64,000 nt of DNA, taken from the NCBI GenBank assembly GCA_964229765.1, contig CAXREJ010000044.1, positions 133,426-197,425 of the forward strand, in the 5' to 3' direction. A model generated the notes under the pieces. The model was not told the origin of the DNA, made no database searches, and saw nothing but the letters and a program-made list of their open reading frames with translations. The position numbers and the translations under genes are program-made. Shown here piece after piece: positions 39,360 to 60,522 of the stretch (the first letter of the stretch is position 1; each line of letters starts with the position of its first letter). The stretch comes from Bdellovibrionales bacterium. GTDB lineage: Bacteria; Bdellovibrionota; Bdellovibrionia; Bdellovibrionales; JAGQZY01.

Positions 39360-39364
39360 AAACC

Positions 39365-39856: not shown

Positions 39857-42609
39857 TTTAGAGCCTCGTTACACTTTGAACAAACTGGACCATATACTTC
39901 AGTGTCCTTAAGTGTATCGTAATTCCAACAACGAGGACACTTATCTCCGTCGGCTTTTTGCACTTTGACATCAATTTCTCGACCTTCGGACAAATGAATA
40001 TTTGAAATGATAAAAAACTCTTTCAATTCTCTGGCAGAGAATGATTGAAAAGTTTTTAAATCATTTTCAGGTAAGGTTAGTTCAATCTGTGCCTCAAGAC
40101 TAGAGCCAATGATTTTTTGATTGCGAGCCTCTTCTAGTTTTTTAGAAGACTCGGTGCGAACAGAGAATAAAGAAGAAAATCTTTTGCGAATTTCCTCATT
40201 GTTCCATTGAGCATCCGCTTTTGGATAACTTTCTAAGAAAACAGAATCTTCCGTTTTTCCTGGAAAATAATTGTAGGACTCTTCGCTGAGAAAAGAGGTG
40301 AGAGGTGCCATTATTTTGATAAGGTTTTCTGTCAAAATATAAACCACAGTTTGGCAAGATCTTCGCTCAAGGCCATCTGTTTTCCACGTATAGAGTCGAT
40401 CTTTGATAATGTCTAAATAGTGTGATGAGAGATCAACAGTGAAAAAGTTATTTAAGGCATGATAAACTTTGTAAAATTCAAAGTTTTCATAGTGCTCCTC
40501 TACAGTCGTCATGAATTGGTAAAGTCGGTCTAAAGCCCACTGGTCGAGAGCCGGCATTTTTTCGTAAGAGATTTTGTCCTTCTCATAGTTAAAGTCACCA
40601 ATGTTACCCAGTAAGAAGCGCATTGTGTTTCTTAGACGACGGTATGTTTCGGTTACTCGTTGAAAGCCCTCTTGGCTGTAATTCATGTCTTGGCCATAAT
40701 CTTGAGACGCGGCCCACAGTCGTAGTAACTCTGCTCCTGATTTTTTAATTAAATCAAGGGGGTCGACAACATTGCCGAGACTCTTAGACATTTTTCTTCC
40801 TTTAGAGTCATTGACAAAGTTATGTGTAAGAAGAGTTTTAAAGGGAGCCTCACCATTGGAGGCAATGGAGGTTAGAAGACTTGTTTGGAACCAACCGCGG
40901 TGTTGGTCACTGCCTTCAAGATAAAGGTCCGCTGGAAACTTTAGGCCCTCTCGTTTCTTTTGAACGGCCGCATGACAAATTCCACTATCAAACCATACAT
41001 CAAGTATGTCTTTTCCTTTTTTAAACTTTTCACTTTCGCATTGAGAGCATTTGTGACCGCTGGTTAACTCTTCAATTGGTAAATCATAGTAGGCTTCAAT
41101 GCCGAGACCATTTTCCATAGTGTCAGCGATTTTATCCATAATTTTTTCATCAATCAGAGGATGGTCACAATTCTCACAATAGAGAACAGGAAGAGGAACG
41201 CCCCAATTTCTTTGTCGACTGATACACCAGTCGGGACGATTTTCAATCATTGCTGTAAGACGCTTCACTCCCCAGTCCGGTACAAAATGGATATCGTCGA
41301 GTGCCTTTAGGGCTTTTTGACGAATATTATAGCTCTCATCATCCATAGCGATAAACCACTGACTGGTGGCCCTAAAAATGACGGGTGTTTTTGTTCTCCA
41401 GCAATGGGGATAACTGTGTTTGATGTCTCGACGGGCAAGTAAGAGTCCTAATTGAGTTAAGTCTTCAATGATAGGCTCGTTAGCTTTAAAAACATTCATG
41501 CCTTCGTATTTTGGGAACTCGTTGGTGTAGGCTCCATTAGGCCCAACAGGACTGAGCAATGGAAGATCGTATTTCATCCCAACAATATAATCGTCTTGTC
41601 CATGGCCTGGGGCTGTGTGAACCACGCCACTTCCAGCTTCTAAAGTCACATGGTCACCTAAGATGAATAAAGAATCTCTATCAATGAAAGGATGTTTGGC
41701 TTTTTCTCTTTCAAACTCTGTGCCGAGAAAATACTTTTTCGGATCTTGTAAACTAACCTCTGTTGCCTCTTCAAACTTTTCTTTGATTTCTTTAGCAATC
41801 AGTAGATAAGAATCGCCAGAGTCAAAAAAACCATATTCATAATCAGGATTAAGTGCCACGGCTTGGTTAGCTGGTAAAGTCCAAGGAGTGGTTGTCCAGA
41901 TAACACAATAAACAGGTTTATCAAAAGAGCCAAACTTCTCACTCGGGTTATAAGGAAACTTAACATAAATGGAAGGGCTGGTGTGATCGTGGTATTCAAT
42001 TTCTGCCTCAGCCAATGCTGTTTGCAGTGGTATGCACCAGTAAACCGGTTTTTGTCCTTGAGTGATAACACCATTTTTATAGTTGCGAGCAAACTCACGC
42101 ACTTCTTCGGCTTCATAGGCGGGGTTGAGAGTGAGATAAGGATTTTCCCATTCCCCTAAGATTCCAAGTCGAATAAACTCTGACTTTTGAGTATCCACCC
42201 ACTTTTGCGCCTCTTCACGACAGAGCAAGCGAATTTCTTTATCTGTTTTTTCACGAACTTTAGGCCCTAGTTTTTTGGTAATATTGTGTTCAATAGGAAG
42301 GCCGTGACAGTCCCAACCAGGAATATAAGGCGCTTCAAATCCAGACATGTTTTTATATTTAATAACGAAATCTTTAAGGCACTTATTAAGGGTGTGCCCC
42401 ATATGGATGTGACCGTTGGCATAAGGAGGGCCATCGGGCATTGTGAAATTCTTTTGTCCCTTATTTTTCTCAACCATACGTTTATAAATATCTTGGTTGG
42501 TCCATTGGTCGATCATTTCGGGTTCCCTTTGTGCCAGGTTGGCTTTCATTGGAAACTGGGTTTGGGGTAGATTGATTGAATCTTTTATGGCCTGTTTTTG
42601 GTCTGACAT
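39853..42609 (-). CDS. ileS: Isoleucine--tRNA ligase
   Basis: HIGH-type PYANGHIHMGH, KMSKS, and a C-terminal Zn-binding CPRCWNY...CSKC. ATG 42609 is preferred because AGGAG lies 7 nt upstream. Confidence 0.95.
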   Translation of the reverse strand: MSDQKQAIKDSINLPQTQFPMKANLAQREPEMIDQWTNQDIYKRMVEKNKGQKNFTMPDGPPYANGHIHMGHTLNKCLKDFVIKYKNMSGFEAPYIPGWDCHGLPIEHNITKKLGPKVREKTDKEIRLLCREEAQKWVDTQKSEFIRLGILGEWENPYLTLNPAYEAEEVREFARNYKNGVITQGQKPVYWCIPLQTALAEAEIEYHDHTSPSIYVKFPYNPSEKFGSFDKPVYCVIWTTTPWTLPANQAVALNPDYEYGFFDSGDSYLLIAKEIKEKFEEATEVSLQDPKKYFLGTEFEREKAKHPFIDRDSLFILGDHVTLEAGSGVVHTAPGHGQDDYIVGMKYDLPLLSPVGPNGAYTNEFPKYEGMNVFKANEPIIEDLTQLGLLLARRDIKHSYPHCWRTKTPVIFRATSQWFIAMDDESYNIRQKALKALDDIHFVPDWGVKRLTAMIENRPDWCISRQRNWGVPLPVLYCENCDHPLIDEKIMDKIADTMENGLGIEAYYDLPIEELTSGHKCSQCESEKFKKGKDILDVWFDSGICHAAVQKKREGLKFPADLYLEGSDQHRGWFQTSLLTSIASNGEAPFKTLLTHNFVNDSKGRKMSKSLGNVVDPLDLIKKSGAELLRLWAASQDYGQDMNYSQEGFQRVTETYRRLRNTMRFLLGNIGDFNYEKDKISYEKMPALDQWALDRLYQFMTTVEEHYENFEFYKVYHALNNFFTVDLSSHYLDIIKDRLYTWKTDGLERRSCQTVVYILTENLIKIMAPLTSFLSEESYNYFPGKTEDSVFLESYPKADAQWNNEEIRKRFSSLFSVRTESSKKLEEARNQKIIGSSLEAQIELTLPENDLKTFQSFSARELKEFFIISNIHLSEGREIDVKVQKADGDKCPRCWNYDTLKDTEVYGPVCSKCNEALK

Positions 42610-42824
42610 TGATAGGCTCCTCATCCTTCAATTTGTCCAGTCGTGACTCGTTTTGATCTCAACGCTGTAACTCCGGTTTTTGGGAATAGAAAATTTTTTC
42701 CCTTTATTCAGAGTGACAGGGTATTTCGTTCAGAAAGATATTGTGAATCGACTGGACAGCAATACTCATTCTTCAGAACAATACATCAAAATAGATGAAT
42801 TATCATGGGTGAAGATAGGGTCAA

Positions 42825-46517: not shown

Positions 46518-48023
46518 TTGAATAAAACAAAGAGGAGGCCCTCGTTGAAAAAAACTTTTATCACTTTGATCACTGTCTTGACTTCGCAAGCACTTTTGGC
46601 TGGAGACATTAAGTGGGAGGGAACTTACCGCTTTGAAGCTTTGAAAGTCTTCAATCCTAGCATGGCCAATGGGGGAACTGATAAATCTTATATGCTTCAC
46701 CATATGACTTTACGCCCTCAGTTCCAGGCATTTGATGGCTTAAGAATTCATGGTCGCTTTGATTTGTTTAATAGCAATCGTTACCCAAATGATCAGTTGG
46801 GACAAACCTTTGGGCAAGGGGTGAACTCGACTCCAGGAACCATTGCAGGGCCTGGTGCTGGAGGCACTCCTCAAAATGGTGGTTTAGGTTCACAAACAAA
46901 TGGTAGTAATTCCAATACCATTAGTGATCAACAAGCCGCTGGTTTTATGGCTATTAATGAACTTTATGCTAACTGGATTCATGAGTTCGGTGTTTTAACT
47001 GTTGGACGTGCTCCGATGCATTTTGGTTTGGGAATGCAGTTTAATGGTGGTTTTGGCGTTTTTGATCACTGGTTAGAAAACCGTGATTTAATTGCTTACA
47101 AAATTGTTATGGGTAACTTTAGTGTTATGCCTGTTCTTGCGAAAACCTATGAGGGGTATTTAGATCAAGAAGATGATGTGAATGATTACATTCTTCAACT
47201 AAATTACAATAACCCTGAAACCGAACTTGAAGTTGGCTTTATATATCAAGCTCGAAGATCCACTAGTAATGCAAATAGTAACGATACCCCAATAGCTCCC
47301 ATTGGAGATGCTGGAACAGTATTGTCTGATAACTATGAAGTGGATTCTTACAACGTTTTTGTTTCTCAGTGGGTGGATGCTGTTAAAGTGGCCTTTGAAG
47401 TGGGCTTTATGAGTGGAAACACGGGCTTATCAACAGGTGGTGCTGAGATTAAGCATGATGCTTTTGGAGGAGCTGTTGAGATCTCGTGGATGCCTGAAGG
47501 TTCAAGTTGGGGCACGACTTTTGACCTGGGTTATGCCAGTGGTGATGATCCCTCAACACCTAATGTTTACGAAGGTTATGTGTTTGATCAAAACTATGAT
47601 GTGGCCTTTCTTTTGTTCAATCATCCCATGGGAACAGCCGATTTTTTTAGAACAGCTTATATGAGAAACATCAGCAACGGCGCGCCTGCTGCGACTTTTT
47701 CCGCTGGAAATTCTTTTGATACGGAAGCGATCAGTAATACAATTTATGCTTCCGGAGCTTTTCATTACAAATGGTATCAGAAATATCACTTAGAAACGCG
47801 CTTAACTTATGCGCAATTAAATAAGGATCCATTGAATGCAGGTGTGGACTCCAATGCTGGCCTTGAGTTAGACTTGAGTTTGAAATACGAACCTTTTAAA
47901 GGTTTTCAATGGGTTAACCGCGCTGGAATATTTATGCCTGGTGCGGCCTTTGAAGGAGGAACTAACAATCTTCCAATTAATAATGCATTTGGATTTGAAA
48001 CCAAAGCCGCCATCAGCTTTTGA
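46518..48023 (+). CDS. Porin-like outer-membrane beta-barrel protein
   Basis: TTG start and signal peptide ...TSQALLA/GD. G/N/S/Y-rich amphipathic strands and C-terminal ...ETKAAISF. Confidence 0.55.
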   Translation: MNKTKRRPSLKKTFITLITVLTSQALLAGDIKWEGTYRFEALKVFNPSMANGGTDKSYMLHHMTLRPQFQAFDGLRIHGRFDLFNSNRYPNDQLGQTFGQGVNSTPGTIAGPGAGGTPQNGGLGSQTNGSNSNTISDQQAAGFMAINELYANWIHEFGVLTVGRAPMHFGLGMQFNGGFGVFDHWLENRDLIAYKIVMGNFSVMPVLAKTYEGYLDQEDDVNDYILQLNYNNPETELEVGFIYQARRSTSNANSNDTPIAPIGDAGTVLSDNYEVDSYNVFVSQWVDAVKVAFEVGFMSGNTGLSTGGAEIKHDAFGGAVEISWMPEGSSWGTTFDLGYASGDDPSTPNVYEGYVFDQNYDVAFLLFNHPMGTADFFRTAYMRNISNGAPAATFSAGNSFDTEAISNTIYASGAFHYKWYQKYHLETRLTYAQLNKDPLNAGVDSNAGLELDLSLKYEPFKGFQWVNRAGIFMPGAAFEGGTNNLPINNAFGFETKAAISF

Positions 48024-48096
48024 TATCACCAAGGACATCATCTTAGTCAAAACAATTTACTAGCAACTTTGGCACAACTTTGAGGCGGAGCAGGGG

Positions 48097-48126
48097 CCCC
48101 GAGGGTAAAACCTCGGGGTTTTTTAT
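48097..48126 (+). terminator. Rho-independent terminator
   Basis: ccccgagg-gtaaaa-cctcgggg followed by TTTTTTATTTTT. Confidence 0.8.
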
Positions 48127-48508: not shown

Positions 48509-49108
48509 ATGATAAGGTTCTCAATATTATTTGTTGCGGTTTTAGTGACACTTAGTTCCTGTTCGACTTTAAAAATACAAGTGGATTCCGATCCCTCTGG
48601 GGCGAATGTTTACCTGAAAGAAGGTAAGAAGCTAAAAAATATTGGTGTTACGCCTGTTGAAATCAATCCCTCGATGATCGCAGGAAAAGACGATGTTCAA
48701 CTGCTTCTAAAAAAAGAAGGTTATCAAAATCATAGTATTTTGATGGCGAACACTTCATTAACGAGTCAGGCTGAAGTTTTTGCTAGTTTACAAAAACTTG
48801 AAAAAATGGAATCAACAATGGTTGCAGAAGGGGCTTCAATCGAGACCCAAAGAAGTCTGGCAAGTATTCAAACTGAGCTCATAAATAAAAATTACCAGCA
48901 AGCAGAGGTCTTAGCAAAATTCTTTTTAGATAAATCTCCTTACTCGCCAGTGGGTTGGAATTTATTAGGCAATGCTTATCTTTTACAAAATAAGAATCAA
49001 GAAGCTCAACAAGCTTATGAGCGGGCTTTGCAATATGATCCCGAAAATAAAGAAACACAGATGATTTTAAATCACCTGCAAACTCAACCAGGAAGGAGGA
49101 ACAACTAA
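48509..49108 (+). CDS. PEGA-domain / TPR-repeat lipoprotein
   Basis: Lipobox VTLSSC/STL. PEGA-like KIQVDSDPSGANVYL and C-terminal TPR-like AEVLAKFFLDKSPYSPVGWNLLGNAYLLQNKNQEAQQAYERALQYDPEN. Confidence 0.55.
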   Translation: MIRFSILFVAVLVTLSSCSTLKIQVDSDPSGANVYLKEGKKLKNIGVTPVEINPSMIAGKDDVQLLLKKEGYQNHSILMANTSLTSQAEVFASLQKLEKMESTMVAEGASIETQRSLASIQTELINKNYQQAEVLAKFFLDKSPYSPVGWNLLGNAYLLQNKNQEAQQAYERALQYDPENKETQMILNHLQTQPGRRNN

Positions 49109-49899
49109 TGTACAATCTTCTTGGTTTTGCTTTGGCATTCTTTCTTATTCAGACGGCTCTTAAAATATTAGGAGTGGGTTCAGAATTCTATTTCGATGAA
49201 GTGGCTTTATTAATTGTTTTTGGTGGAACATTTTCGGCCATGATTATTTCGTTTCCATCAAAATTTTTAATGCGCTTTATTCAAGCTCCTTGGAAAATCT
49301 TTCGCAGCAAAAGGAATTTTCAAAAATACACGATCGAAGAACTTATACAAACAGCCATGAAGGGGGACACTCAGCGAGTTTATCTACAGTCTCTTCTCCG
49401 TAATAATAAAATTGATAGTTTTTTTAAAGAAGGTATTGAACTCTATTTATTAGATTTGGATAGAGAAGAGTTTAAAGATATTTTGACGGAAAGAATTTAT
49501 CGTTCACGGCAAAGAGATGAAGAGTGGGTGAGTCTTTTTAGAAGACTTTCAAAGTACCCTCCGGCATTTGGACTTGTAGGAACGGTTTTGGGTCTTATTA
49601 GTTTGATGCGATCTGTGGGAGAGGGAGCCAATGCCTCTCAAATTGGTTTGAGTATGGCGATTGCACTTGTGGCCACACTTTACGGATTGGCCTTTTCAAA
49701 CTTTGTATTAGCCCCTATTGCAGAGAATTTTCAGAAAACAGCAGAGGATCAAAAAGTTTATAGAGAATTGATGTTAGAAGGCTTACTTTATTTGTTTGAT
49801 CGAAAAAGTGCACTTTCTGTACAGGAAATGTTGAATTCTTATCTCGAGCCCAATCAACGCATTGATCTGCTCGGTTTGAATGAAAGGGTTAGCGCTTAA
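49108..49899 (+). CDS. motA: MotA/PomA-family stator proton(ion)-channel protein
   Basis: Four TM segments, a large charged cytoplasmic loop, and the conserved PAFGLVGTVLGLISLM and MAIALVATLYGLAFSNFVLAPIAENF. The start overlaps the upstream stop (TAATG). Confidence 0.75.
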   Translation: MYNLLGFALAFFLIQTALKILGVGSEFYFDEVALLIVFGGTFSAMIISFPSKFLMRFIQAPWKIFRSKRNFQKYTIEELIQTAMKGDTQRVYLQSLLRNNKIDSFFKEGIELYLLDLDREEFKDILTERIYRSRQRDEEWVSLFRRLSKYPPAFGLVGTVLGLISLMRSVGEGANASQIGLSMAIALVATLYGLAFSNFVLAPIAENFQKTAEDQKVYRELMLEGLLYLFDRKSALSVQEMLNSYLEPNQRIDLLGLNERVSA

Positions 49900-49900
49900 T

Positions 49901-50905
49901 ATGCAGAAAAATAAACTAAGAGCCCCATTTTCTAGTGAAGAAGTCGAGAATAGCTGGGCGATCAGCTATGGCGACATGATCACATTGCTTTTGGGCTTTT
50001 TTGTTATTTTCTTTAATATTAAAAGTGAAACCATGAATATGACTCTCATTCAAAAAGACTTAGACAAGTATTTTAAGAATCAAAGTCAGATTGAGGAAGG
50101 TCGTAAGGTCGCCCAAGTTCAGGATAAAAATGCCGGCCCAGGTGTACCTATTGCCTCTACACAATTAGTTAACTCGTTGAAGTTAAAATCTAATTTGGAA
50201 GGTGAGAGAATTTTAGTGGAGTTCCCGGGAGTGAGCTTTTTCAACTCAGCCTCTCATCAACTCACTGAAAGTGGTAAAGATGTTTTAAAAGATTTCTCAA
50301 GAGCTATCGAGGGTCATTTAGGACAATTTCGCTTAGTCGTTAGAGGTTACACGGATGGAATTCCTGTTTCTAAAGGCTCAAGGTACAAAGACAATTTAGA
50401 GCTTTCCGCTTTTCGCTCCATAAGTGCAATTCGTTTTTTAGCTAATCAAGGATTAAACCTTAGTCAGATGAGAATTGCCGGCTATGGAGAATCTTCATTA
50501 AGTAGGCAAGCAATAAACTCTAAAGACAGGGGTGATGAGAGAAAAATTGTCATTGTGATTGAACCTTTAGACCATACAGAAAAGGTAGAGTCGCAAGGGG
50601 CTTACCTTATGCCAGATAAAGGCATTGAAGAGATTGAAAAAACCAACTTAAATGACCGAAAGATTAGTTCATTAAATACTAAGAATCCTCTTTTGGTTGG
50701 AGCTGAAGAACTATTAGGTGACGAGCTTTCCTGGAAAAACCTAGAGTATAAAAGTAATGAAGCTTTATTTTATATAGATGACCTAATTTCTAAAAATAAA
50801 TTGTATCAGAAATATTTGAATTACCTTGTGGAAAGAAATCTTAAGAAACAAGGCTACTCACAAAAAGAAATTGAGAAAATAAACAAACAAAGGACTAAGC
50901 AATGA
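49901..50905 (+). CDS. motB: MotB-family stator protein with OmpA-like peptidoglycan-binding domain and C-terminal extension
   Basis: WAISYGDMITLLLGFFVIFF carries the conserved channel Asp. OmpA-like VVRGYTDGIPV...NLELSAFRSISAIRFL...RIAGYGES. About 100 extra C-terminal residues. Confidence 0.75.
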   Translation: MQKNKLRAPFSSEEVENSWAISYGDMITLLLGFFVIFFNIKSETMNMTLIQKDLDKYFKNQSQIEEGRKVAQVQDKNAGPGVPIASTQLVNSLKLKSNLEGERILVEFPGVSFFNSASHQLTESGKDVLKDFSRAIEGHLGQFRLVVRGYTDGIPVSKGSRYKDNLELSAFRSISAIRFLANQGLNLSQMRIAGYGESSLSRQAINSKDRGDERKIVIVIEPLDHTEKVESQGAYLMPDKGIEEIEKTNLNDRKISSLNTKNPLLVGAEELLGDELSWKNLEYKSNEALFYIDDLISKNKLYQKYLNYLVERNLKKQGYSQKEIEKINKQRTKQ

Positions 50906-52578
50906 AATGGTTGTTGGTGTTCATAGTATGCCTCTCTGCTATCCCAAGTTTTGCATCGAGACTGCTCGAAGTAGAAGATTATTATCAGAGAAAGACAAGT
51001 GACTTTATAAAGAGTCGATATCCTCATCGAGCTTTTTCAGTCAATATTATTGTGCAGGCAGAAGAGCAGCCTGACTTGAGACAACCGGCATCGAATAGGT
51101 CCGGAGAATCTATAAGTTTACCTTACTTGAATCAGGTCACTTCCCCATCAGTTGGCTTTTGGGAGAGAAAAGATCTTTCTTTAGGGACAATGATTTCCTA
51201 TCTGAAGGGAATTTTTGTAAATGTTGAGATCGAGGGGCAGCTGTCTGAAATTGAACGAGAGAACTTTAAGAAAGATCTTTTTAAGTATTTAAAGCTATCT
51301 GAAATATATGACCGTATTGAAGTTAAAAATGGATTGTGGGGAGAGCGAAGTGAGCTATGGCAGGAAATAAAAGGTGGGGTTCTGGTAGCCTTGGCTTCCG
51401 TCTTGTCTTTAGGTTTTATATTGTTTGCTATTTTTCATCTTGGTGTGGGACGTCTAGTTAATGGATTGGCGAAACCTTTGTCTGAAATTGGTAAGTCAGC
51501 TGAAAGTGTCGCGAACTCCTCAGGAATCTCAACATCTTCAATGCCAAAGTCCTTTGTCGATTTAAATTCTCAAAATCAAAAAGATATTTTAGGGGAAGAT
51601 AAAGTCAATTGGATTGAAAACGAAATGAAAGAACTGTCCACTTTCTTTTCAGAGCCCAATTCTCAGCTTCTTCATTTGTTAGAGAAACATGGATATGAAA
51701 ATCCACATGCCGTGGGATCTTTGTTAAGTTTACTAAGTATTGAGACTTTAAAAGAACTGCTCGTTTGGTCACAAGGTTCTTGGTGGAGAACGGCTGTGAC
51801 TCAGCCAAGTCAATTAACGACAGCTTCAATGAATGTATTGTCAGAAATTATTCACCTTAAGAGAAGACAAGATCTCTTGCGTGAGAATGATGAAAAACAC
51901 AGAGAATTGGAACTGGCATTAACCCGTTTAAATAAGAAAGATTTTGGCACGATACTAAAAGGCTATGAGTTTGAAAAAGCCGAGCCAATATTAAATTTAC
52001 TTCCTTCTGATTTAAAAATGTCGGTGGGAAAATATTTGTATCCTGGAGAATGGGCTCGCTTATTAAAGGCTAATAACCAACCATTAGATGAAAAAATGGC
52101 TCAAACAATTCAATCTCAATCCTTAAAATTAGCACCTAGAAAAAGCACAGAAGAAATCAATCAGTACTTTAAAGACGCTGATTTGTTAAAAGTGCTCGAT
52201 CACTCTAATACTAAGGATGAAAGAGAAATTTATAGAACCTTAGATCAAGACTCTTGGATCGTTAAGAGTCGACAACCTTTTTACGCTATCTTTGATTCCA
52301 ATGAATCTGTATTGGAATCATTGATATTGACCATCCCGCTAGAGTCCTGGGCTATGGCGATCACACATTGTGACAGGGAAGAATGTGACACTTTGTTTAA
52401 GTACTTTAATTCAAGGCAGAAGTATATTCTACGCAACTTTAAAGAGCATTTTAAAAAGCAAAAGTTAGCTTCCTCTTTTGTGGCGCAGGCAAAACGGGAA
52501 ATAGTGATGCGAGTTGCACATCAAATAGAGCAAAATAAAAACTCAGCAGAGGAAAAAGTTCATGAGCAGGCTGCTTAA
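50902..52578 (+). CDS. Membrane-anchored protein with a cytoplasmic FliG-like (N/M/C motif) region
   Basis: Signal/anchor at aa 1-18, a TM at about aa 159-182, then blocks resembling the window's own FliG. These are FEKAEPILNLLPSDL, ENPHAVGSLLSLLSIETLKELL, and FYAIFDS...ECDTLFKYFNSRQKYILRNF...AQAKREIVMRVAHQIE. The start overlaps the motB stop (ATGA). Confidence 0.45.
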   Translation: MKWLLVFIVCLSAIPSFASRLLEVEDYYQRKTSDFIKSRYPHRAFSVNIIVQAEEQPDLRQPASNRSGESISLPYLNQVTSPSVGFWERKDLSLGTMISYLKGIFVNVEIEGQLSEIERENFKKDLFKYLKLSEIYDRIEVKNGLWGERSELWQEIKGGVLVALASVLSLGFILFAIFHLGVGRLVNGLAKPLSEIGKSAESVANSSGISTSSMPKSFVDLNSQNQKDILGEDKVNWIENEMKELSTFFSEPNSQLLHLLEKHGYENPHAVGSLLSLLSIETLKELLVWSQGSWWRTAVTQPSQLTTASMNVLSEIIHLKRRQDLLRENDEKHRELELALTRLNKKDFGTILKGYEFEKAEPILNLLPSDLKMSVGKYLYPGEWARLLKANNQPLDEKMAQTIQSQSLKLAPRKSTEEINQYFKDADLLKVLDHSNTKDEREIYRTLDQDSWIVKSRQPFYAIFDSNESVLESLILTIPLESWAMAITHCDREECDTLFKYFNSRQKYILRNFKEHFKKQKLASSFVAQAKREIVMRVAHQIEQNKNSAEEKVHEQAA

Positions 52579-53101
52579 AGTTGTACTAATTTGCTTCTTA
52601 TTATCAAGTTATGCTCAAGCGGCCACTCAAGTGGGTGTTAAAGCCGGAACTTGGACTTTTTCTCGAAATGGTCAGTCCACTAGCGGTGTGGGAGCCTATT
52701 CTCTTGAAGTGAATCAACCGATTAGACCCTCCATCAGTCTTTCTGTTGGTATTAGTTTTCTTTATGAAAATGGTTTCAGTGGAAGTTCAGGTTATGGCTT
52801 TGATTTTGGTGCCAGGTATTTTCCTTGGACTTTTGCAAGTCATCATCAAGCCGGATCAGAAGACTCATCAGTGGCCTATTCTGAAAAGTTTCGCCCTTAT
52901 GCGGGACTTTTTTTAAGGCAAAGACTTTTTGGATTATCACAATCTGTCAGCTATCTAGGGCCTGGCGTTTCAGCGGGATTAGACTACTCACTCTATGATT
53001 CTTTTTTGCTCAATGCTGAAGCTCGTTATGATCAGTTGCAAGGAAGTGATTCAACAGCAACACAAATAAACCTATTATTTGGTTGTACTTGGGAATTCTA
53101 A
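52562..53101 (+). CDS. Small outer-membrane beta-barrel protein
   Basis: Signal peptide ...SSYAQA/ATQ, about 8 amphipathic strands, and C-terminal LLFGCTWEF. Overlaps the upstream gene by 17 nt. Confidence 0.5.
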   Translation: MSRLLKVVLICFLLSSYAQAATQVGVKAGTWTFSRNGQSTSGVGAYSLEVNQPIRPSISLSVGISFLYENGFSGSSGYGFDFGARYFPWTFASHHQAGSEDSSVAYSEKFRPYAGLFLRQRLFGLSQSVSYLGPGVSAGLDYSLYDSFLLNAEARYDQLQGSDSTATQINLLFGCTWEF

Positions 53102-53165: not shown

Positions 53166-53756
53166 ATGAAAAAACCTCAATGGCTTTCCCATTATGATTT
53201 TGGACCTGTGGTTGAAATGCCAAAATCTTATCATGTTTATGATTTCTCAAAAGAGAAGAGTTCATCCACTTATATTTACAGTGTGGGACGTTATAATGAA
53301 AAACGTCCGCAAATGTACACCACACCTTTATTTAAAAATCAGCACAGAGATATTCATATGGGGATTGACCTAGGAGTTCCTAAGGGATCTCCTGTCTTTA
53401 ATTTTTATAGGGGTGAGTTGATTTATAAAAAAAATAATCAAGGGGAGGGTGACTACGGTCCTACTTTGGTTTTTCGCTATAAGTTTGAATCAATCTATCT
53501 CTATGCTTTGTATGGTCATCTTAGTCTTTCTTCTTTAGATTTACACTCCGTCGGAGATGTTGTTGAAAGAGGGGGGAAGATAGCTTTTGTCGGAGATCAA
53601 ACAGTTAATGGTGGTTGGTTTCCTCATGTGCATTTTCAATTAAGCCTCAAAGATCCTCAGGAGGCGGACATGGCGGGAGTGGTTGCAAGTAAGGATCATA
53701 AACAAGCCTTAGAGCTTTACCCTGATCCACGTTGGGTACTTGGTTCGATTTATTAG
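53166..53756 (+). CDS. M23-family (LytM-like) metallopeptidase-domain protein without an obvious signal peptide
   Basis: HMGIDLGVPKGSPV (HxxxD) and GWFPHVHFQL (HxH) motifs. The N-terminus is hydrophilic. Confidence 0.65.
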   Translation: MKKPQWLSHYDFGPVVEMPKSYHVYDFSKEKSSSTYIYSVGRYNEKRPQMYTTPLFKNQHRDIHMGIDLGVPKGSPVFNFYRGELIYKKNNQGEGDYGPTLVFRYKFESIYLYALYGHLSLSSLDLHSVGDVVERGGKIAFVGDQTVNGGWFPHVHFQLSLKDPQEADMAGVVASKDHKQALELYPDPRWVLGSIY

Positions 53757-53996: not shown

Positions 53997-55238
53997 TTAA
54001 GGTTCCGTGCTTGGATTTGCTGTTAGGACATCAGTTTCATTGCTAAAATTGAGGGTCGTGCTGGCTGAAACGGAAGCAAAATCAGCTCCATTATATCCAG
54101 AAAGAAATGTTCCAAGAAATGCTGATCCGCTCACATTTCCGCCAGCTAGAGCAGTAGCAGAAGCACTGCATAAGCTACCATCAATGGCTATATTCCCATT
54201 GCTTCCATTGACACAGGCTCTGAATTCACCGGCTCCACCAAGTTCATTTTCAGATTCTAAGCTGAGTGAAAACTGGCCTCCTGTTGTATTTGGTTTCCCA
54301 GCAAGAACGAACAAAGTCTCACGATAGTCCTCTCCAGCTGTTTCATCATCATCCATTCCTCTTGCACTTAAAATATAGCCATTGTCTTCATTGGCGTCAT
54401 AAAAGAGTCTGTAAAAGCTGGCATAAGGCCCATCATTATCAGCAGTAGTATCATTCATAGATCCAGCCTGGGGTCCTGAAACGTATTCTCCTTTTAAGAT
54501 ATCGTTAGTCACGTCATAATAGACCACTGTTCTGGAAGCTCTCGGTATACTGTCATAGGTATAAGTTTCTGCTGTTGCAACGTTGATAGATGTAGAGCTT
54601 GCACGAAAATAATAAACTTGCTCTCCACCGTTCATTTCACTGAGATCAATAGTCGCCTTTTTATCAAAATTTGTTGTATCTTCTGCATCTTCAATGACGA
54701 TTGTCATAGAAGTACCGTCTGGAATGTCATCAACATCTTGAAAGTTACATTGAGACTTCATGCCAGCTTTAACACTTGGAGAAAATGAAAAAGTTTGCCC
54801 TTCTGCTCCAGTGTTTTCAGGGTAGCCGCTAGAGTTGCCTAGAGCAACTCCCATAGCACACATTATTTTCATAGCGCCTTGAACTCGACCTACGACGGAA
54901 ATATCGGATCCGTTGTCTCTTTTGGATTCGGCATCAATTTCATTTCCCATATAATCTTTTGTTGATATAAGAGAACAAGATTGTCCTGAACAAGCTTGGT
55001 CTGGCCAATTCGTGTCGACCTCCCAAGCATTTGAGAAATTGGGGGCAGCTGTTGCTTTAATTGCTGACCCTGATTCTCCTTGTATGAAATCAATTTGACT
55101 TAATTTTGTTGATAGCGTTCCAAAGGAAGATGTCATTGGGTTAACGACTTCTGAACTGGTAGTAGCACTATCATCGTTACTACTACAGGCCATTAATGAA
55201 AGAGATAAAACTGCAAAAATAAGATATTTCATTTTCAT
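53997..55238 (-). CDS. Hypothetical lipoprotein (D/S/T/G-rich)
   Basis: ATG 55238 with GGAG 9 nt upstream. Lipobox LSLMAC/SSNDD. No recognised domain. Confidence 0.55.
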   Translation of the reverse strand: MKMKYLIFAVLSLSLMACSSNDDSATTSSEVVNPMTSSFGTLSTKLSQIDFIQGESGSAIKATAAPNFSNAWEVDTNWPDQACSGQSCSLISTKDYMGNEIDAESKRDNGSDISVVGRVQGAMKIMCAMGVALGNSSGYPENTGAEGQTFSFSPSVKAGMKSQCNFQDVDDIPDGTSMTIVIEDAEDTTNFDKKATIDLSEMNGGEQVYYFRASSTSINVATAETYTYDSIPRASRTVVYYDVTNDILKGEYVSGPQAGSMNDTTADNDGPYASFYRLFYDANEDNGYILSARGMDDDETAGEDYRETLFVLAGKPNTTGGQFSLSLESENELGGAGEFRACVNGSNGNIAIDGSLCSASATALAGGNVSGSAFLGTFLSGYNGADFASVSASTTLNFSNETDVLTANPSTEP

Positions 55239-55481
55239 GTAAATGCTCCGTTGAGAAAATATTAATAATTTGTATTTTTCTATCGACAATTTTTTTGAAT
55301 GGTATTAACTATTTTTGATCAACTTCAAATTGAAGCTCAATTCATCTTAAAACTATTTTAAAGTATTGATAAAAGACTACATTAAAAACAACTGTTCTTA
55401 TTTAGTATTCTCGTTTTTCATGATGTTTTCATTCTATGAAAAGAGTCCTTAATTGTATGGTGCTAATAAAGGACTGTGTGC

Positions 55482-58400
55482 TTAAGGAGAAAGTTTTACT
55501 TTACGGATAACGTGATTGTAGGTGTCTCCAATATAAAGATCACCGTTTCCATCAAAAGTCACTCCAGAAGGGTATAGGAGTGTTGCCGATGTGGCTAAAA
55601 TCCCCTCTTGTGAAAAATCGAATGTTGATCCTCCACTGGGTGAGTTTTCACTTCTTCCAGCGACAGTGTTGACAAAACCGGTTGTTGTATCAATACAGCG
55701 AACGTTGTGTCGGTTTCTTTGTGCATAACAAAGTTGGTTGTTGTACAATGCAAGACCTACAGGTTGGTTACAGCGAGCCGAGGTGGCAAGAACATTTTCG
55801 TTTGGTGAGCCACCTGTTCCACTGATGCAAGCAATGACTTTTACACGATTGGCATTGATTGTCGTAGGACCAATATTCACTGGAGCCGCTGTACGGTTCC
55901 AGTACCAAATATGATGATTGCTAAAGTCTGAAATAAAAAGATTACCAAGGCTATCTATGGCAATGTCTTTGGGTCGATTAAAACGAGCAGCGGCTTCTGC
56001 GACGTCGAACCCTGGATTACCCGATGTACCACAAAGTCCAAGGACAGTTGTTACATTTCCAGTATTATCCAACTTTCTTATACAGTGATTGTTTGAGTCC
56101 GCTATAAAAACCTCTGGATTGCCACCGTTATCGTAGAAACGGGCAGAGTTAGGGTGATCCATTTGAGCACTCACACCGTTACCATCACTTGTTCCAGGGG
56201 AAGCATAGTTTCCGGCGAGTGTTGTAATTCTATCAGAGGTGATATACTGATTAAAATAAGTATTACCAGTTTGAGTGCGATTCCAAAGTCTTAGATTGTG
56301 ACCATCACTATTTAATTGCAGAAGACTTCCATCGGGTAATAAATCAAATGCCGTTATCGTAGTGTCATTTCCGTTAAAGGTTGTGCGCATGGGTGCGCCC
56401 CCTGGAAAGTCATCATCAATAATGGGATCTCCAGCAGCATCACCATTACCAACGACTGTTTTTAAAAGTCCATATGGATTAACGCTCCTAATAGTTTGAT
56501 TATGTTGGTCTGCAATGAAAAGAGTATTGGTGCTATCTTCATAAGTAATGCCCGTCGGATAGTCGAGAAGATGTTGAAAGTGAGGTTTTTCGGCATCATT
56601 GGTAAAGCCGTTTTTACCACTGCCAGATCCTAACAAGTTAGCAATACTTCCGCTCGCAATATCAACGGCTCTTACGCGGTAATTGGTGTAATCAGCAATT
56701 AACAATTCACTATTGTTAATCGGATTAATAGCAAGATGGTAGGGTTGATTAAAGCGTGTGGAGTTAACACCAAAATTAACACCATTGTAGCCACCACTAA
56801 TACTACTGAAGCGACCGAGCTGTCCGTTGGGAATTGTTTGAGCATCAATGGTAATAGGAGCAGGGGAATTATTGCCTAAAACAAGGTGATGTCTTTGGCG
56901 ACCAGATACATAAATTTCATTAAGGTTTCTAACAAAAACACTGGTTGGCAAGCCGATTGGAGAGCTGAGTGGATTACCAGTGGCAGGAGTATTACCTGTA
57001 CCACCATCACCCATAATAGTGGCAACATTGCCGTTACTGACAGTAAGGGCGTCAGGATTTCCTGCCCAAAAGTTAATGGGACCTCCAGAATGATTTACAA
57101 ATCGGACGACATCGAGATCATATAAGGTGACATAGATTCCGTTGGTATCAACAAATAAACCATATGGTCTACGCATTCCACCAGAAGTGGCGGCAATATT
57201 TTCACCAGCGCCGTCTGCACCACCATCACCAGCAACAACATAAGCAAGGTCTGTTGATAAATCCCATCTTTTAACTCGGTGGTGGTCATAACAAGTGACA
57301 TAAAGGCTGCCGGCATAACCAAATAAATCCACAGGACGATTGCAGTCATGATTGTAGGCTGAGTCACCATCGACATGAGAGTTTGATCCTCCCATTCCAG
57401 TAAAGACAACTCCTGAGCTATTTACAAATTTAACTTGATGTCCATCGTATTCGGCAATGAAGAGTCGATCTCCAACTTCATCGTACCATAGACCATAAGG
57501 ATTATTAAGAGGAGATTGAGTGGCTGGGATTCCGATTGCACCTGTTGCATCTTCACCTGTACCAGCGACCACTTGAATCACTCCGGCAGGGATTGTTTGC
57601 CCAATGCGAGTCACGGGGGCACCGGTTTGGTTCCAGTACCATACGACCATACTATCAAGATCTGATATAAAAAGATTTCCGTTGGACTCTTGATGGAATT
57701 TAAAAGGTCTAAAGCGCAATGGAAATTGGGTATTATTTGCTGCTAGTTGGTTTCCTTTATGAGCGCCACCGGCAAATGTACAAATTTGACCTGTCTGTAA
57801 TTGATTACATGCTTGGTTGAAGTAATTAATTTCAACATTCCAAGTGTACTGACTTGAACGTGTTCCATCACTGACATTGAGAGTGATGGTTGCATTTCCA
57901 ACTTCTGTGGGATCGCCAGTTAAAGTTCCAGTGCCGCTAACTCCAGTGAGTAGAGAAGAAGTGGCTCCATTAAGAAGCCAAGTGTAGGTGAGAGAATCGC
58001 TGTTAGGGTCGCTGGCTGTAGCATTAATATTAAGTGTTCCGTCGTAAGCCACTTTTGGTGTGCCTGTGGTAACAGGTGTAATAACGGGTGGTCCATTGAT
58101 CTTAATATTCCAGGTTCGCGATTTAGTGGTTGTATTGTCTGAGGCTTGAGCGACTAATGTATAAGAGCCAACATTGCTCACATCTCCTGTTAAGGAGACA
58201 ACATTGGTTGCGCCAATCGGCTGTCCATTGAGTGTCCACGAATAAGTGAGTTGGGCAGGGTAAGGAGATATTGCCGTGATAACAAAGTCTTTAGTTTCAT
58301 TAATTTCTATAATGATATTGTTGCTACCAGGTATGTAGCTAGTAATTTCTAAGTCACCACCAACAACAGTAGTTGTACCACCTTCTCCGGCTAATATGCC

Positions 58401-58487
58401 GAGTCCATCATCACCTTGTTTACAAGAGTTAGACAACAATGCAAAAGTAACTAAAAATAAACAATAAAACGTACGACGTGAAATCAT
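55482..58487 (-). CDS. Large surface lipoprotein with N-terminal Ig/PKD-like modules and many NHL-type beta-propeller repeats
   Basis: Lipobox LLSNSC/KQG. Repeated ...YTWLLNG.../...TWNVEINY Ig-like modules. More than 10 NHL-like units such as PYGLFVDTNGIYVT, PTGITYEDSTNTLFIADQHNQTIRSV and PSGVTFDGNGDLYIGDTYNHVIRKV. Confidence 0.65.
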   Translation of the reverse strand: MISRRTFYCLFLVTFALLSNSCKQGDDGLGILAGEGGTTTVVGGDLEITSYIPGSNNIIIEINETKDFVITAISPYPAQLTYSWTLNGQPIGATNVVSLTGDVSNVGSYTLVAQASDNTTTKSRTWNIKINGPPVITPVTTGTPKVAYDGTLNINATASDPNSDSLTYTWLLNGATSSLLTGVSGTGTLTGDPTEVGNATITLNVSDGTRSSQYTWNVEINYFNQACNQLQTGQICTFAGGAHKGNQLAANNTQFPLRFRPFKFHQESNGNLFISDLDSMVVWYWNQTGAPVTRIGQTIPAGVIQVVAGTGEDATGAIGIPATQSPLNNPYGLWYDEVGDRLFIAEYDGHQVKFVNSSGVVFTGMGGSNSHVDGDSAYNHDCNRPVDLFGYAGSLYVTCYDHHRVKRWDLSTDLAYVVAGDGGADGAGENIAATSGGMRRPYGLFVDTNGIYVTLYDLDVVRFVNHSGGPINFWAGNPDALTVSNGNVATIMGDGGTGNTPATGNPLSSPIGLPTSVFVRNLNEIYVSGRQRHHLVLGNNSPAPITIDAQTIPNGQLGRFSSISGGYNGVNFGVNSTRFNQPYHLAINPINNSELLIADYTNYRVRAVDIASGSIANLLGSGSGKNGFTNDAEKPHFQHLLDYPTGITYEDSTNTLFIADQHNQTIRSVNPYGLLKTVVGNGDAAGDPIIDDDFPGGAPMRTTFNGNDTTITAFDLLPDGSLLQLNSDGHNLRLWNRTQTGNTYFNQYITSDRITTLAGNYASPGTSDGNGVSAQMDHPNSARFYDNGGNPEVFIADSNNHCIRKLDNTGNVTTVLGLCGTSGNPGFDVAEAAARFNRPKDIAIDSLGNLFISDFSNHHIWYWNRTAAPVNIGPTTINANRVKVIACISGTGGSPNENVLATSARCNQPVGLALYNNQLCYAQRNRHNVRCIDTTTGFVNTVAGRSENSPSGGSTFDFSQEGILATSATLLYPSGVTFDGNGDLYIGDTYNHVIRKVKLSP

Positions 58488-58706: not shown

Positions 58707-60365
58707 TTACTTGCACTTTCCTTGATAGTACCACTTTTGTCGTCCTCTCAAATAAGCTTTCTTTGAGTCTGACATTTTCTTGTAACAAGCGGCTCGACGT
58801 TCTGCGCCTGCGGTGTCAAAGATCTTCTTTAAATCCAAGTTAAGAAGTGGATTGGGTTTTTTGTGTTTTTCATTGTGGTCAAGAATGGCCATTTTGTCGG
58901 CATGTTCTTTTTCCCTTTGATCTCTTTCAGCCCAATTAGATGCCATATTGGCAGCAACTTTTTTGCGAATTCTTTCGGATTCCTTTTTATAAGCTTCTTC
59001 TTTTGCCATTCGTTCTTGTCTTGCCTTTTCGTTGGCAATCATTTTATTTTGTTTTTGAATCAAGACATTTTGGGCTTTTTCTATAGAAGAAAAGCTATTG
59101 TTTTTTTCATAAGAAGAAAGGCTATGCTGCTTCCATTCTTTTTTATGAAAGTAATAGTCTTCATTAAGGCCTTGGAAAAGAGTAACCTTGGTTTCAACAA
59201 GTTGGCCTTTACTATCAGTGGCTCCTGTGAATAATGGCAAAGCAATCATTTCACGATGAAAATTGGTTGGATCTTTTTTCAATTCCGCAATTACTTTTAA
59301 GGGATCCCCTGGGTGAGCGTGAAAGTCATACCAATTGGTCGATTTATAGTTTCCTTTTTTATCTTGAAATAAAAAAGTTGTTGATCGGTGAAGTGGAACT
59401 GTCTTGCCAGGAGCATACTGATAGCCGGCAAAAACACCCGAGTGCACCTTATTAGGGTCAGGTTTGACGATAACTCCTAAAAAATCTCCATGATCTTTTG
59501 TCGCATCAAACAGCTGATCTTTTCCGTAATGCACGATGGGCATATAGACATCATCCCCTTTGTGAATCCATGGTCTAACATCATAAGGGAATTTTCCAGA
59601 TCCATAATGTGTTTTTTGATAAAAATAGTGTACTTTTTCAAAAGGAATAGAGGATCCGACTTTATTACCATCAGCACTATAAACTTGATAAAAAATCTTA
59701 TCTCCCATTTTATGACGAACCATACGGGTTGAGTTGTTGGCAAGAATAGTGTGTGTTGAGGTCAGTGTATGAACGGGAGGAAAAAGGGCTTTTCTTTTGG
59801 GATCATTATCTACATTTTCAACCTTTTTTATAATGTCGAGATTGCTCGAAAGAATATAGTAGGTTTTCATGGAGTCTGAAAAAGCTCCCGAGTAATAGCG
59901 TAGGTGAGCCGGAACATTTTCTGTGATGGGTGAGCCATTAAAAACCTTACCAGCCTCTAAATACTCTATAGGAGTTTGGGTTGTTACATTTGTTTTTAAA
60001 TTATAAATGCTATAATTTTTGTCTCCGTATTTTTTGAATAGAAAAGTATGGTTACGAGAATAGCGTTCAATCCAAATATGCTCATAGATAGGATCGAAAG
60101 AAAATTTACGGTCCAAAGTACTTACACCCATATAGGTTTTTCCCTCCTGCCAAGAGGGATAGAGTTTTGGCATTCCTTTTTTATAAGTAATACTACATGT
60201 GAATAGCTTTTTTTCATCTCCCTGTTTGTAGGAGAAACTATTGTTTTGGCATTTTGCCGACTTTTCCCAATTTAATTTTTCAGGAACGGTGTAGCCTCCA
60301 TAGCCATTGCCCATGCAGCCTGATAAAATAAAAAAAAGTAAATAGAAAAGACTGTAATTTTTCAT
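58707..60365 (-). CDS. Hypothetical lipoprotein with a K/E-rich C-terminal coiled coil
   Basis: ATG 60365 with AGAGGA upstream. Lipobox FFILSGC/MGNG. The C-terminal ~110 aa are a charged helix (ANEKARQERMAKEEAYKKESERIRKK...). Confidence 0.55.
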   Translation of the reverse strand: MKNYSLFYLLFFILSGCMGNGYGGYTVPEKLNWEKSAKCQNNSFSYKQGDEKKLFTCSITYKKGMPKLYPSWQEGKTYMGVSTLDRKFSFDPIYEHIWIERYSRNHTFLFKKYGDKNYSIYNLKTNVTTQTPIEYLEAGKVFNGSPITENVPAHLRYYSGAFSDSMKTYYILSSNLDIIKKVENVDNDPKRKALFPPVHTLTSTHTILANNSTRMVRHKMGDKIFYQVYSADGNKVGSSIPFEKVHYFYQKTHYGSGKFPYDVRPWIHKGDDVYMPIVHYGKDQLFDATKDHGDFLGVIVKPDPNKVHSGVFAGYQYAPGKTVPLHRSTTFLFQDKKGNYKSTNWYDFHAHPGDPLKVIAELKKDPTNFHREMIALPLFTGATDSKGQLVETKVTLFQGLNEDYYFHKKEWKQHSLSSYEKNNSFSSIEKAQNVLIQKQNKMIANEKARQERMAKEEAYKKESERIRKKVAANMASNWAERDQREKEHADKMAILDHNEKHKKPNPLLNLDLKKIFDTAGAERRAACYKKMSDSKKAYLRGRQKWYYQGKCK

Positions 60366-60522
60366 GTTGTATCCTCTTAAGATGCTATTTTCTGATTCTA
60401 TTTGAGCCATTAAAACCTCAATAGACCTAAACTTATCGGACTATTAAAGAGGGAAGTGTAGTGAAACATCTCTTATTATTTATTGATCTGGTGATTAGTC
60501 TGTAGACTCTTTAAAGAATGAT

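Follow-up and report, generated by a model that had tools for sequence, protein, structure and literature searches.

A membrane-anchored FliG-like protein encoded with a flagellar-type MotA/MotB pair in a conserved envelope gene cassette of Bdellovibrionota

The DNA analysed here (the window) is a 64,000-nucleotide stretch of a Bdellovibrionales bacterium (GenBank assembly GCA_964229765.1, contig CAXREJ010000044.1, positions 133,426 to 197,425 of the forward strand). It carries a cassette of six genes encoding a PEGA/TPR lipoprotein, MotA, MotB, a 558-amino-acid (aa) protein, a small outer-membrane (OM) β-barrel protein and an NHL/Ig lipoprotein. The fourth product, hereafter X, is the subject of this study: it is predicted to combine a signal peptide, a periplasmic domain resembling the third ring-building motif (RBM3) of FliF, one transmembrane (TM) helix and a FliG-like cytoplasmic region, and it is encoded directly 3′ of a flagellar-type MotA/MotB pair throughout its family.

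Protein X and its family

X is the product of the open reading frame (ORF) at 50902-52578 on the forward strand. As the preliminary description of this DNA had claimed, the start codon (ATG, 50902-50904) overlaps the motB stop codon (TGA, 50903-50905) in the sequence ATGA at 50902-50905, and the sequence AAGGA lies 8-12 nucleotides upstream. The identity of the translational neighbours as a MotA/MotB pair was borne out by matches to Pfam PF01618 and to MotB_plug/OmpA upstream of X. When 1.84 billion cluster representatives (50% identity level) were searched with a profile, 207 matched X, 196 with E ≤ 1e-10. Of the best 150 matches, almost all were ~550-600 aa long and aligned across their entire length; X is therefore not a chance ORF. 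All annotated members carry the label ‘hypothetical protein’. An exact database look-up of the window protein found no record, a PDB search with the single sequence gave nothing meaningful, and a word-indexed homologue search with the broad family alignment recovered only the same 10 proteins. This broad alignment comprised 133 diverse members, 18-44% identical to the window protein, and a 20-sequence subclade alignment was used to scan the metagenome collection.

Every family member begins with a type-I signal-peptide-like hydrophobic N-terminus that ends in an AxA-type cleavage site (IPSFA/SR in the window protein, the slash marking the site). A single strong hydrophobic segment was found in each of the 133 aligned members (median position 162), and AlphaFold predicted a long helix across it. 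These observations agree with the topology proposed earlier, namely a signal sequence, a periplasmic segment, one TM helix and a ~375-aa cytoplasmic region. The boundaries in the window protein are a predicted cleavable signal peptide at aa 1-18 (50902-50955, forward strand, as for all segments of X), a periplasmic domain at aa 19-148 (50956-51345) and the sole TM helix at aa 159-182 (51376-51447), with a hydropathy peak of 2.76 at aa 160. The cytoplasmic region contains two helical-repeat subdomains joined by long helices (aa 228-430, 51583-52191), weakly similar to the N and M domains of FliG or to MgtE_N, and a FliG C-terminal-domain homologue (aa 431-545, 52192-52536). Invariant residues occur in all domains (W87, D137, W295, W384, E440 and Y444), and the cytoplasmic region was modelled with a predicted local distance difference test score (pLDDT) of ~90.

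The extreme C-terminus of X showed a separate pattern of conservation. The final two residues, encoded at 52570-52575 in the window, are Ala-Ala in 90 of the 133 members and [A/V/S/I]-Ala in 121, and the preceding ~15 residues are variable. A conserved Ala-Ala at a cytoplasmic C-terminus resembles an ssrA-like degron for ClpXP/ClpAP and would suggest regulated turnover.

FliG-like and FliF-like regions of X

The relationship to FliG was clearest at the C-terminus. The Pfam FliG_C family (PF01706) matched the window protein at 19.1 bits (E 0.0017), under the cut-off of 23.3 bits, and matched the orthologues P0007, P0009 and P0008 at 42.1, 41.7 and 26.5 bits, respectively; seven of ten close members were matched (best E 1.1e-10). 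When the 133-member profile was compared with the PDB, the top six matches were all FliG, the best being 1qc7 (E 1.3e-4, X residues 462-543). An earlier profile of 10 sequences also ranked FliG first, with E ~0.1, and significance was reached only with 133 sequences. Alignment of profiles with hhalign paired X residues 427-545 with residues 217-335 of the genuine FliG encoded elsewhere in the window, including PFYAIF against MFIFDD and the torque-helix region, and Foldseek superimposed the C-terminal model onto Thermotoga maritima FliG_C (1qc7_B) with a template-modelling score (TM-score) of 0.81 and a root-mean-square deviation of 1.9 Å. Judged by these comparisons, the C-terminal ~115 aa of X is a genuine FliG_C homologue. 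Together with the topology, this upholds the earlier view of X as a membrane-anchored protein bearing a real FliG_C-type domain in the cytoplasm.

The remainder of the cytoplasmic region gave a different result. No match to Pfam FliG_N (PF14842) was found in the window protein or in the other members scanned, and FliG_M (PF14841) gave no match with E ≤ 1 when the window protein and its close members were scanned, so that of the three Pfam families suggested in the preliminary description FliG_C alone was matched, above its cut-off in orthologues and below it in the window protein. Alignment of the X family by hhalign to the window FliG, or to a 26-sequence FliG alignment, likewise matched the C-domain only; the latter profile added little because the FliG homologues retrieved for it are 78-100% identical. 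Local hhalign of aa 228-430 against FliG yielded only non-significant and mutually non-collinear solutions. The preliminary description had read all three FliG signature blocks in X. Its C-domain block was recovered by hhalign, Pfam and the PDB profile search, but its N-domain block (X 357-371 against FliG 23-37) and its EHPQR block (X 266-287 against FliG 141-162) were not sustained: their order along X is reversed, so they cannot share one collinear alignment. The EHPQR-block pairing appeared in hhalign only as a sub-optimal solution without significance (E 0.13) and the FEKA block was paired in another register (E 0.03). The FliM-binding motif EHPQR itself is absent from X, in which only the proline of ‘ENPHA’ is conserved in the family. 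Pfam detected weak MgtE_N matches at aa ~330-420, and the two blocks probably reflect the generic helical-repeat signature shared by FliG and MgtE_N.

Structural comparison suggested some resemblance beyond the C-domain. The best PDB matches to the full model of X were full-length FliG chains (~330 columns, E 7e-4), and the E value worsened stepwise as smaller portions of FliG were matched (6e-3 for M plus C, 0.35 for C alone), indicating that the upstream part of X adds positive signal. A separate model of aa 228-430 (pLDDT 91.7) gave FliG as its top seven Foldseek matches (E 0.15-0.84), followed by generic armadillo repeats. The models thus depict aa 228-430 as weakly FliG-like, at the level of fold only. 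Another protein of the FliG/MgtE_N fold is encoded within the window: a 254-aa product at 27563-28327 (forward strand), between fliJ and fliK, has a C-terminal MgtE_N-like match (E 5e-5).

On the periplasmic side, AlphaFold modelled aa 20-145 as α-β-β-α-β, strands 1 and 2 being separated by an insertion of 47 aa that was modelled with low confidence. The best Foldseek matches were the RBM3/S-ring chains of Salmonella and Vibrio FliF, over ~157 columns, with probabilities of 0.92-1.00, E values of 0.13-0.35 and TM-scores of 0.4-0.5. In an alignment of the X family with the window FliF, hhalign paired X 116-199 with FliF 395-489, a stretch made up of the second TM helix and, before it, the final α-β of RBM3; the pairing is collinear and non-significant (E 0.06). 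FliF RBM3 and SpoIIIAG have been described as ‘split’ ring-building motifs with an insert that lies between strand 1 and strand 2 (PMC4768692), and both the position of the insert and the order of secondary structure elements in X agree with FliF RBM3 as described there. The best-conserved periplasmic motifs sit within this insertion (LPY...[DE]W...), comprising LPY/F and an invariant tryptophan, the latter within DEWDDP in most of the family and FWxRKD in the window clade. None of the members scanned matched PF01514 (YscJ_FliF; RBM1-RBM2), and the periplasmic part is just ~130 aa long. In the predicted structure, X resembles the C-terminal half of FliF, ‘FliF RBM3 + TM2’, fused to a FliG-like protein.

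The FliG_C alignment allowed residues known for their role in torque generation to be located in X. The position of the MFXF hinge is occupied by R457-x-P-F-Y, nearly invariant in the family as R-P-P-F-Y (residues 457-461) and present as R-Q-P-F-Y in the window protein. The torque-helix equivalent includes R505 and R511-N512-F513. Position 505, which corresponds to Escherichia coli FliG R281 and is arginine in the window protein, is K/R in 132/133 members; 515 is K/R in 100/133, 518 is D/E in 101/133 and 531 is R/K in all 133. Position 512, the D288 equivalent, is glutamate in 76/133 members and asparagine in the window clade, which has R511 instead. Of the torque-helix charges described earlier as altered (RNF for NDD), D288/D289 are represented in the window protein by N512/F513; the R281 equivalent is kept.

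The cassette MotA differs at the corresponding surface. The motif A-R-R-E-G-L-L-x-L-E is near-universal in MotA and includes the residues R90 and E98 of E. coli, the contacts of FliG D288/D289 and R281. HMMER searches and MAFFT alignment against Clostridium sporogenes and Bacillus subtilis MotA showed that this motif is absent from the window cassette MotA and from 20 related ones, variable sequence taking its place. The window protein has D87 at the position of R90 and S95 at that of E98.

The cassette and the flagellar genes

To place X in its genomic context we compared the window with 32 related loci, drawn from a genome collection, a metagenome collection and exact look-ups of near and very distant members. 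The six-gene cassette is kept in 30/32 of these loci; the exceptions are L010, with neither a barrel nor an NHL gene, and L017, in which the NHL gene is missing. Conservation of the cassette extends to X proteins of ~18-20% identity and includes Pseudobdellovibrionaceae, Bdellovibrionales, Bdellovibrionia, Bdellovibrionota, Bacteriovoracaceae and Halobacteriovorax sp. The survey of co-occurrence proposed in the preliminary description gave a uniform answer, MotA and MotB accompanying X in the window and in every locus compared. All six products are envelope proteins, with signal peptides, lipoboxes or TM segments, and their sizes vary within limits across the loci: ~190-220 aa for the PEGA/TPR lipoprotein, 257-279 for MotA, 218-341 for MotB, 553-591 for X, ~180-200 for the β-barrel and 1000-1300 for the NHL/Ig lipoprotein. 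Literature searches for FliG-like, non-flagellar partners of MotAB found no paper describing the cassette.

The motor genes are of flagellar type. Gene 2 (49108-49899, forward strand) encodes a 263-aa MotA that matches Pfam MotA_ExbB (PF01618) at E 1.5e-22 and PDB flagellar MotA at E 3e-30. Among NCBIfam models it matched flagellar MotA/PomA/MotP end to end (1e-30 to 1e-36), compared with 6e-5 for TolQ and 0.013 for ExbB. Gene 3 (49880-50905, forward strand) encodes MotB, in which Pfam and alignment to PDB MotB identify a plug, a TM aspartate (SYGDMITLL) and an OmpA-type peptidoglycan-binding domain; the channel aspartate aligns to that of B. subtilis MotB. By these sequence features the pair is flagellar-type and apparently channel-competent. 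The longest motB ORF, from 49880, overlaps motA by 20 nucleotides, and an internal ATG at 49901 lies two bases past the motA stop (MQKNKLRAPF...). Since orthologues begin M-x-x-NKLRAPF, MotB probably starts at 49901 and is 334 aa long. MotB of the window clade also has a ~100-aa Lys/Glu-rich extension beyond OmpA (50590-50905, aa ~230-341), so that the protein is 313-341 aa in most of the clade. Neither L004 (240 aa) nor the distant clade (mostly 218-263 aa, with 300 in L010) has this extension.

The other cassette genes encode two lipoproteins and a predicted OM β-barrel protein. Gene 1 (48509-49108, forward strand), whose stop abuts or overlaps the motA start, specifies a 199-aa lipoprotein with the lipobox LSSC and, in Pfam, a PEGA domain ahead of TPR repeats; NCBIfam reports weak similarity to YbgF and Tgl, and a homologue is in place wherever the upstream flank is present. 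Gene 5 (52562-53101, forward strand) overlaps the end of X by 17 nucleotides and encodes a 179-aa predicted OM β-barrel protein with a signal peptide; its Pfam OMP_b-brl match is weak here and passes in orthologues, and it follows X in nearly all loci. Gene 6 (55482-58487, reverse strand) encodes a lipoprotein of 1001 aa in which Ig-like (Big_9/cadherin-like) domains are combined with NHL β-propeller repeats (Pfam NHL, E 6e-23; TEN_NHL). Its homologues adjoin the cassette in most loci with enough flank. The gene is convergent with the cassette in the window clade; in the distant clade it comes straight after the barrel gene and reads in the same direction, and in L004 it lies upstream and is divergent. 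The interval that separates the barrel gene from the NHL gene in the window holds an M23 peptidase gene (53166-53756, forward strand) and a gene for a 430-aa lipoprotein with lipobox LMAC and no clear family (53997-55289, reverse strand). As neither was found there in other loci, both are lineage-specific insertions; the NHL gene of the related loci abuts the barrel gene without intervening genes.

An intrinsic-terminator-like hairpin (48092-48123, forward strand; 13-bp stem, 7 GC, T-run) ends the preceding gene and marks the upstream boundary of the cassette transcription unit. A promoter scan was uninformative, with 18 sites against 18.9 expected. The gene that ends at the terminator (46518-48023, forward strand) encodes a 501-aa predicted OM protein with a weak Alginate_exp-like β-barrel match (E 1e-3) and is not a conserved neighbour of the cassette elsewhere. 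On its downstream side the NHL gene is directly followed by a gene for a 567-aa protein without a family match (58707-60410, reverse strand), and then comes one for a 1153-aa protein (60523-63984, reverse strand) that has near its C-terminus a Peptidase_G2 intramolecular-chaperone autoproteolysis domain, as in tailspike/endosialidase-like fibres. Further away, an ileS-lspA-lgt run (38559-42624, reverse strand; isoleucyl-tRNA synthetase, signal peptidase II and prolipoprotein diacylglyceryl transferase) is ordinary housekeeping; the cassette encodes two lipoproteins.

The flagellar genes of the window form a separate cluster, 19-30 kb upstream of the cassette. The genuine fliG (24013-25065) is distinct from the gene for X, its product has canonical torque-helix charges, and it stands in a normal fliF-fliG-fliH-fliI-fliJ...fliK-flgD cluster in which fliF-fliG-fliH occupy 22343-25798. 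Likely flgB-flgC genes precede fliF. Immediately upstream of the flagellar genes (17368-21101, forward strand) lie genes for a 918-aa multi-TPR protein and a σ54-dependent activator (Sigma54_activat plus HTH_8). After flgD comes a 428-aa ORF, presumably flgE, with no motAB, and then a Na+/alanine symporter gene on the opposite strand. No homologue of FlgB/C, FliF-K, FlgD/E or a σ54 activator was found within ±9 kb of the cassette in any of the 32 related loci (382 kb).

X as a candidate rotor-like partner of a dedicated stator

The best-supported reading of these observations is one already raised in the preliminary description, that X is a self-anchored, rotor-like partner for a dedicated stator; the tight coupling to MotA/MotB and the FliG_C domain speak for it. 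We put at roughly one half the probability that a self-contained, non-flagellar machine, spanning the envelope and powered by its own MotA/MotB stator, has X as its rotor-like subunit, the one that receives the force. MotB would anchor the MotA5B2 unit to peptidoglycan, and ion flow would turn MotA, whose cytoplasmic face would push on the FliG_C-like domain of X. Oligomerisation of X through its RBM-like domain could produce an inner-membrane ring or arc, such that a single polypeptide would do the work of FliF (the MS-ring) plus FliG. Motion or force might then pass through the conserved periplasmic domain of X, via its insertion, to the lipoprotein and OM partners, with surface gliding, prey attachment or invasion, or envelope remodelling as possible outputs. 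The lack of FliM/FliN genes, the lack of EHPQR and the proline at the hinge (Pro-Pro in the family majority) suggest that such a device would be non-switching. A broader formulation is more tentative: that Bdellovibrionota carry a second, flagellum-independent rotary (or processive) motor, in which MotA5B2 drives a single-polypeptide FliF-S-ring/FliG ring. Such a motor would have no type III export apparatus, no rod or hook and no switch complex, and its ring would connect to the TPR lipoprotein, the OM β-barrel and the giant NHL/Ig lipoprotein at the cell surface.

Comparison with known proteins showed likenesses of X to both FliG and FliF. Like FliG, X has a homologous C-terminal domain that includes the hinge position, the torque helix and the basic residue at the R281 position; FliG is the best structural match to its whole cytoplasmic region, and its gene adjoins flagellar-type motA/motB. 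FliG is soluble and held by FliF, whereas X begins with a signal peptide and possesses a periplasmic domain and a TM helix, is 558 rather than ~330-350 aa long, lacks the FliG_N/FliG_M sequence signal and EHPQR, and has N/F for D288/D289. It is also found in a lipoprotein-motA-motB-X-OMP context without FliM/FliN/FliF neighbours, unlike fliG in fliF-fliG-fliH, and the window encodes a separate, genuine FliG. X probably works like FliG. In the strict sense it is not a FliG member, as it departs from FliG in solubility and gene context as well as in the N and M profiles, EHPQR and the acidic torque residues. With FliF, X is predicted to share the α-β-β-α-β order with a strand 1-2 insertion, followed by a TM helix and then a cytoplasmic FliG or FliG-like part. 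It differs in having no RBM1/RBM2 or YscJ_FliF match, an insertion of ~47 aa compared with the ~110-aa β-collar of FliF, an N-terminus that is a cleaved signal peptide rather than the first TM helix of FliF, and no significant sequence similarity. By sequence, then, X is not a FliF member, but its predicted structure resembles the RBM3-TM arrangement.

A covalent union of these two functions has precedents. Engineered FliF-FliG fusions exist in Salmonella. For Vibrio, PMC11481574 describes an engineered FliF-FliG fusion (PDB 8z4d/8z4g) that assembles into the MS-ring, with the S-ring structure solved. A natural FliF-FliG fusion of Chlamydiaceae has been described bioinformatically (Bergeron 2016, PMC4768692) as a protein of ~330 aa with two TM helices, an RBM2-like and another RBM and, in the cytosol, only a FliG_M-like part; it is believed to act together with the injectisome and lacks a MotAB partner (PMC4768692). 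The existence of such fusions, natural or, in the engineered Vibrio case, assembling into a ring, indicates that a covalent MS-ring/FliG unit is viable. The chlamydial case also qualifies the earlier remark that no characterised protein with this architecture was known, since a self-anchored FliG module is not wholly unprecedented. Compared by description only, X and the chlamydial fusion both join one or more predicted ring-building periplasmic motifs, a membrane anchor and a FliG-like cytoplasmic part; X differs in having one RBM3-like domain, a full-length FliG-like region with a torque-generating C-domain and an obligate MotAB pair.

The cassette also invites comparison with other ion-driven envelope machines. 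Like ExbBD-TonB, TolQR-TolA, AglRQS-Glt, GldLM and ZorAB, it would place an A5B2-type ion motor, a force-receiving partner of its own and outer-envelope components in one cluster. Unlike the ExbB/TolQ-like (‘generic ion transporter’), Gld and Zor motors, which have no FliG-like partner, its motor is flagellar-type, with a MotB plug and a large MotA cytoplasmic domain. An assignment to the Zorya anti-phage system was rejected: PADLOC detected generic MotB-to-ZorB similarity only and no ZorA, and MotA, X and the neighbouring proteins had no matches. A survey of MotAB evolution treats only Exb/Tol/Agl-type non-flagellar relatives (PMC12505986).

Several findings weigh against X being the rotor of a separate machine. 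In the fold searches the resemblance of its N/M region to FliG is weak and that of its periplasmic domain to FliF RBM3 is modest, and the acidic residue that most of the family keeps at the position of FliG D288 is lost in the window clade. No second motAB was found within the 64-kb window. In PMC3526173, the flagellum of Bd. bacteriovorus is reported to draw on all three motAB pairs of that species, and only one pair is reported for B. marinus SJ. Finally, the proposal gives no account of the way in which a ring rotating in the inner membrane would do work on partners anchored in the OM.

Some of these points are what would be expected if the cassette served the flagellum, a possibility we consider real but unlikely. 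Its MotAB would then be one of several stator sets for a single flagellar motor. X would mimic FliG from its membrane anchor, docking, storing, recruiting or braking stators, or would form an extra ring round the basal body, with the lipoproteins and β-barrel as a periplasmic/OM scaffold of the sort that PflA/PflB/FlgP or MotX/MotY/FlgT provide in other high-torque or sheathed motors. The stator-sequestering or brake role that the preliminary description named as its second option is neither favoured nor contradicted by the data. The clearly flagellar character of MotA and MotB, with plug and peptidoglycan-binding domain, fits this, as do the reported swimming role of all three Bd. bacteriovorus pairs (cited in PMC3526173), the flagellar cluster upstream and the lack of another motAB in the window. 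TPR proteins and lipoproteins are, moreover, typical stator scaffolds. Against it, flagellar genes are missing near the cassette in the 32 other loci, and the cassette MotA lacks the R90/E98 motif, which contacts the torque helix of canonical FliG, while the genuine FliG retains its canonical charges. Nor is it obvious why a decoy or brake should need a predicted ring-building domain in the periplasm, a barrel in the OM and an NHL lipoprotein of 1000-1300 aa, every one of them strictly co-inherited.

A non-rotary energiser appears more doubtful still. MotAB would act like ExbBD/TolQR, and X would be an inner-membrane protein that is energised without spinning as a ring, a functional analogue of TonB/TolA passing conformational work to the TPR lipoprotein, β-barrel and NHL lipoprotein for an OM process such as protein surface exposure, OM tethering or uptake. 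The composition of the cassette (inner-membrane motor, inner-membrane-anchored adaptor, TPR lipoprotein, OM barrel, large OM lipoprotein) does parallel Tol-Pal, Ton and Agl-Glt, and the weak likeness of the TPR lipoprotein to YbgF and Tgl points the same way. The Ton, Tol and Agl systems, however, couple through an adaptor TM helix inside the A-subunit ring, and their motors are of ExbB/TolQ type with small cytoplasmic domains. The cassette motor has instead a flagellar-type cytoplasmic torque domain of large size and an adaptor with a cytoplasmic FliG_C domain, which points to coupling at the cytoplasmic face as in the flagellum; the periplasmic part of X, in addition, is short, is predicted to have a ring-building fold and includes no extended periplasm-spanning linker. 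That X is a degenerating FliF/FliG-derived relic carried with a spare motAB is very improbable. The sub-threshold FliG_C score of the window protein and the loss of canonical acidic torque-helix residues in its clade could be taken as decay, but the number of full-length relatives, the invariant residues across all domains, the gene order kept across the phylum and the confident AlphaFold models oppose it, and conservation effectively refutes a pseudogene or relic.

To our knowledge, a MotAB-FliG stator-rotor pair has been described only inside flagella, the 5:2 motors of the Ton, Tol, Agl, Gld and Zor systems using different partners. Even if the cassette were a flagellar accessory, X would represent a component of a new kind, for the docking or regulation of stators. 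If X is instead the rotor-like subunit proposed here, the cassette would define a new class of ion-driven envelope machine, in which a flagellar-type stator is reused with a self-anchored FliF/FliG-like protein at a distance from flagellar genes. With one rotor protein, no switch complex and no export gate, it would offer a minimal, compact rotor-stator system for structural and biophysical work. It would also bear on how an MS-ring/C-ring/stator core might have existed before or apart from type III secretion, as a living example of the minimal ‘MS-ring + C-ring + stator’ module proposed for pre-flagellar evolution. Because the cassette is phylum-wide in the predatory Bdellovibrionota, it is a candidate for unexplained steps of surface motility or prey entry that depend on the proton motive force, and a second motor of this kind could power gliding, prey attachment or invasion.

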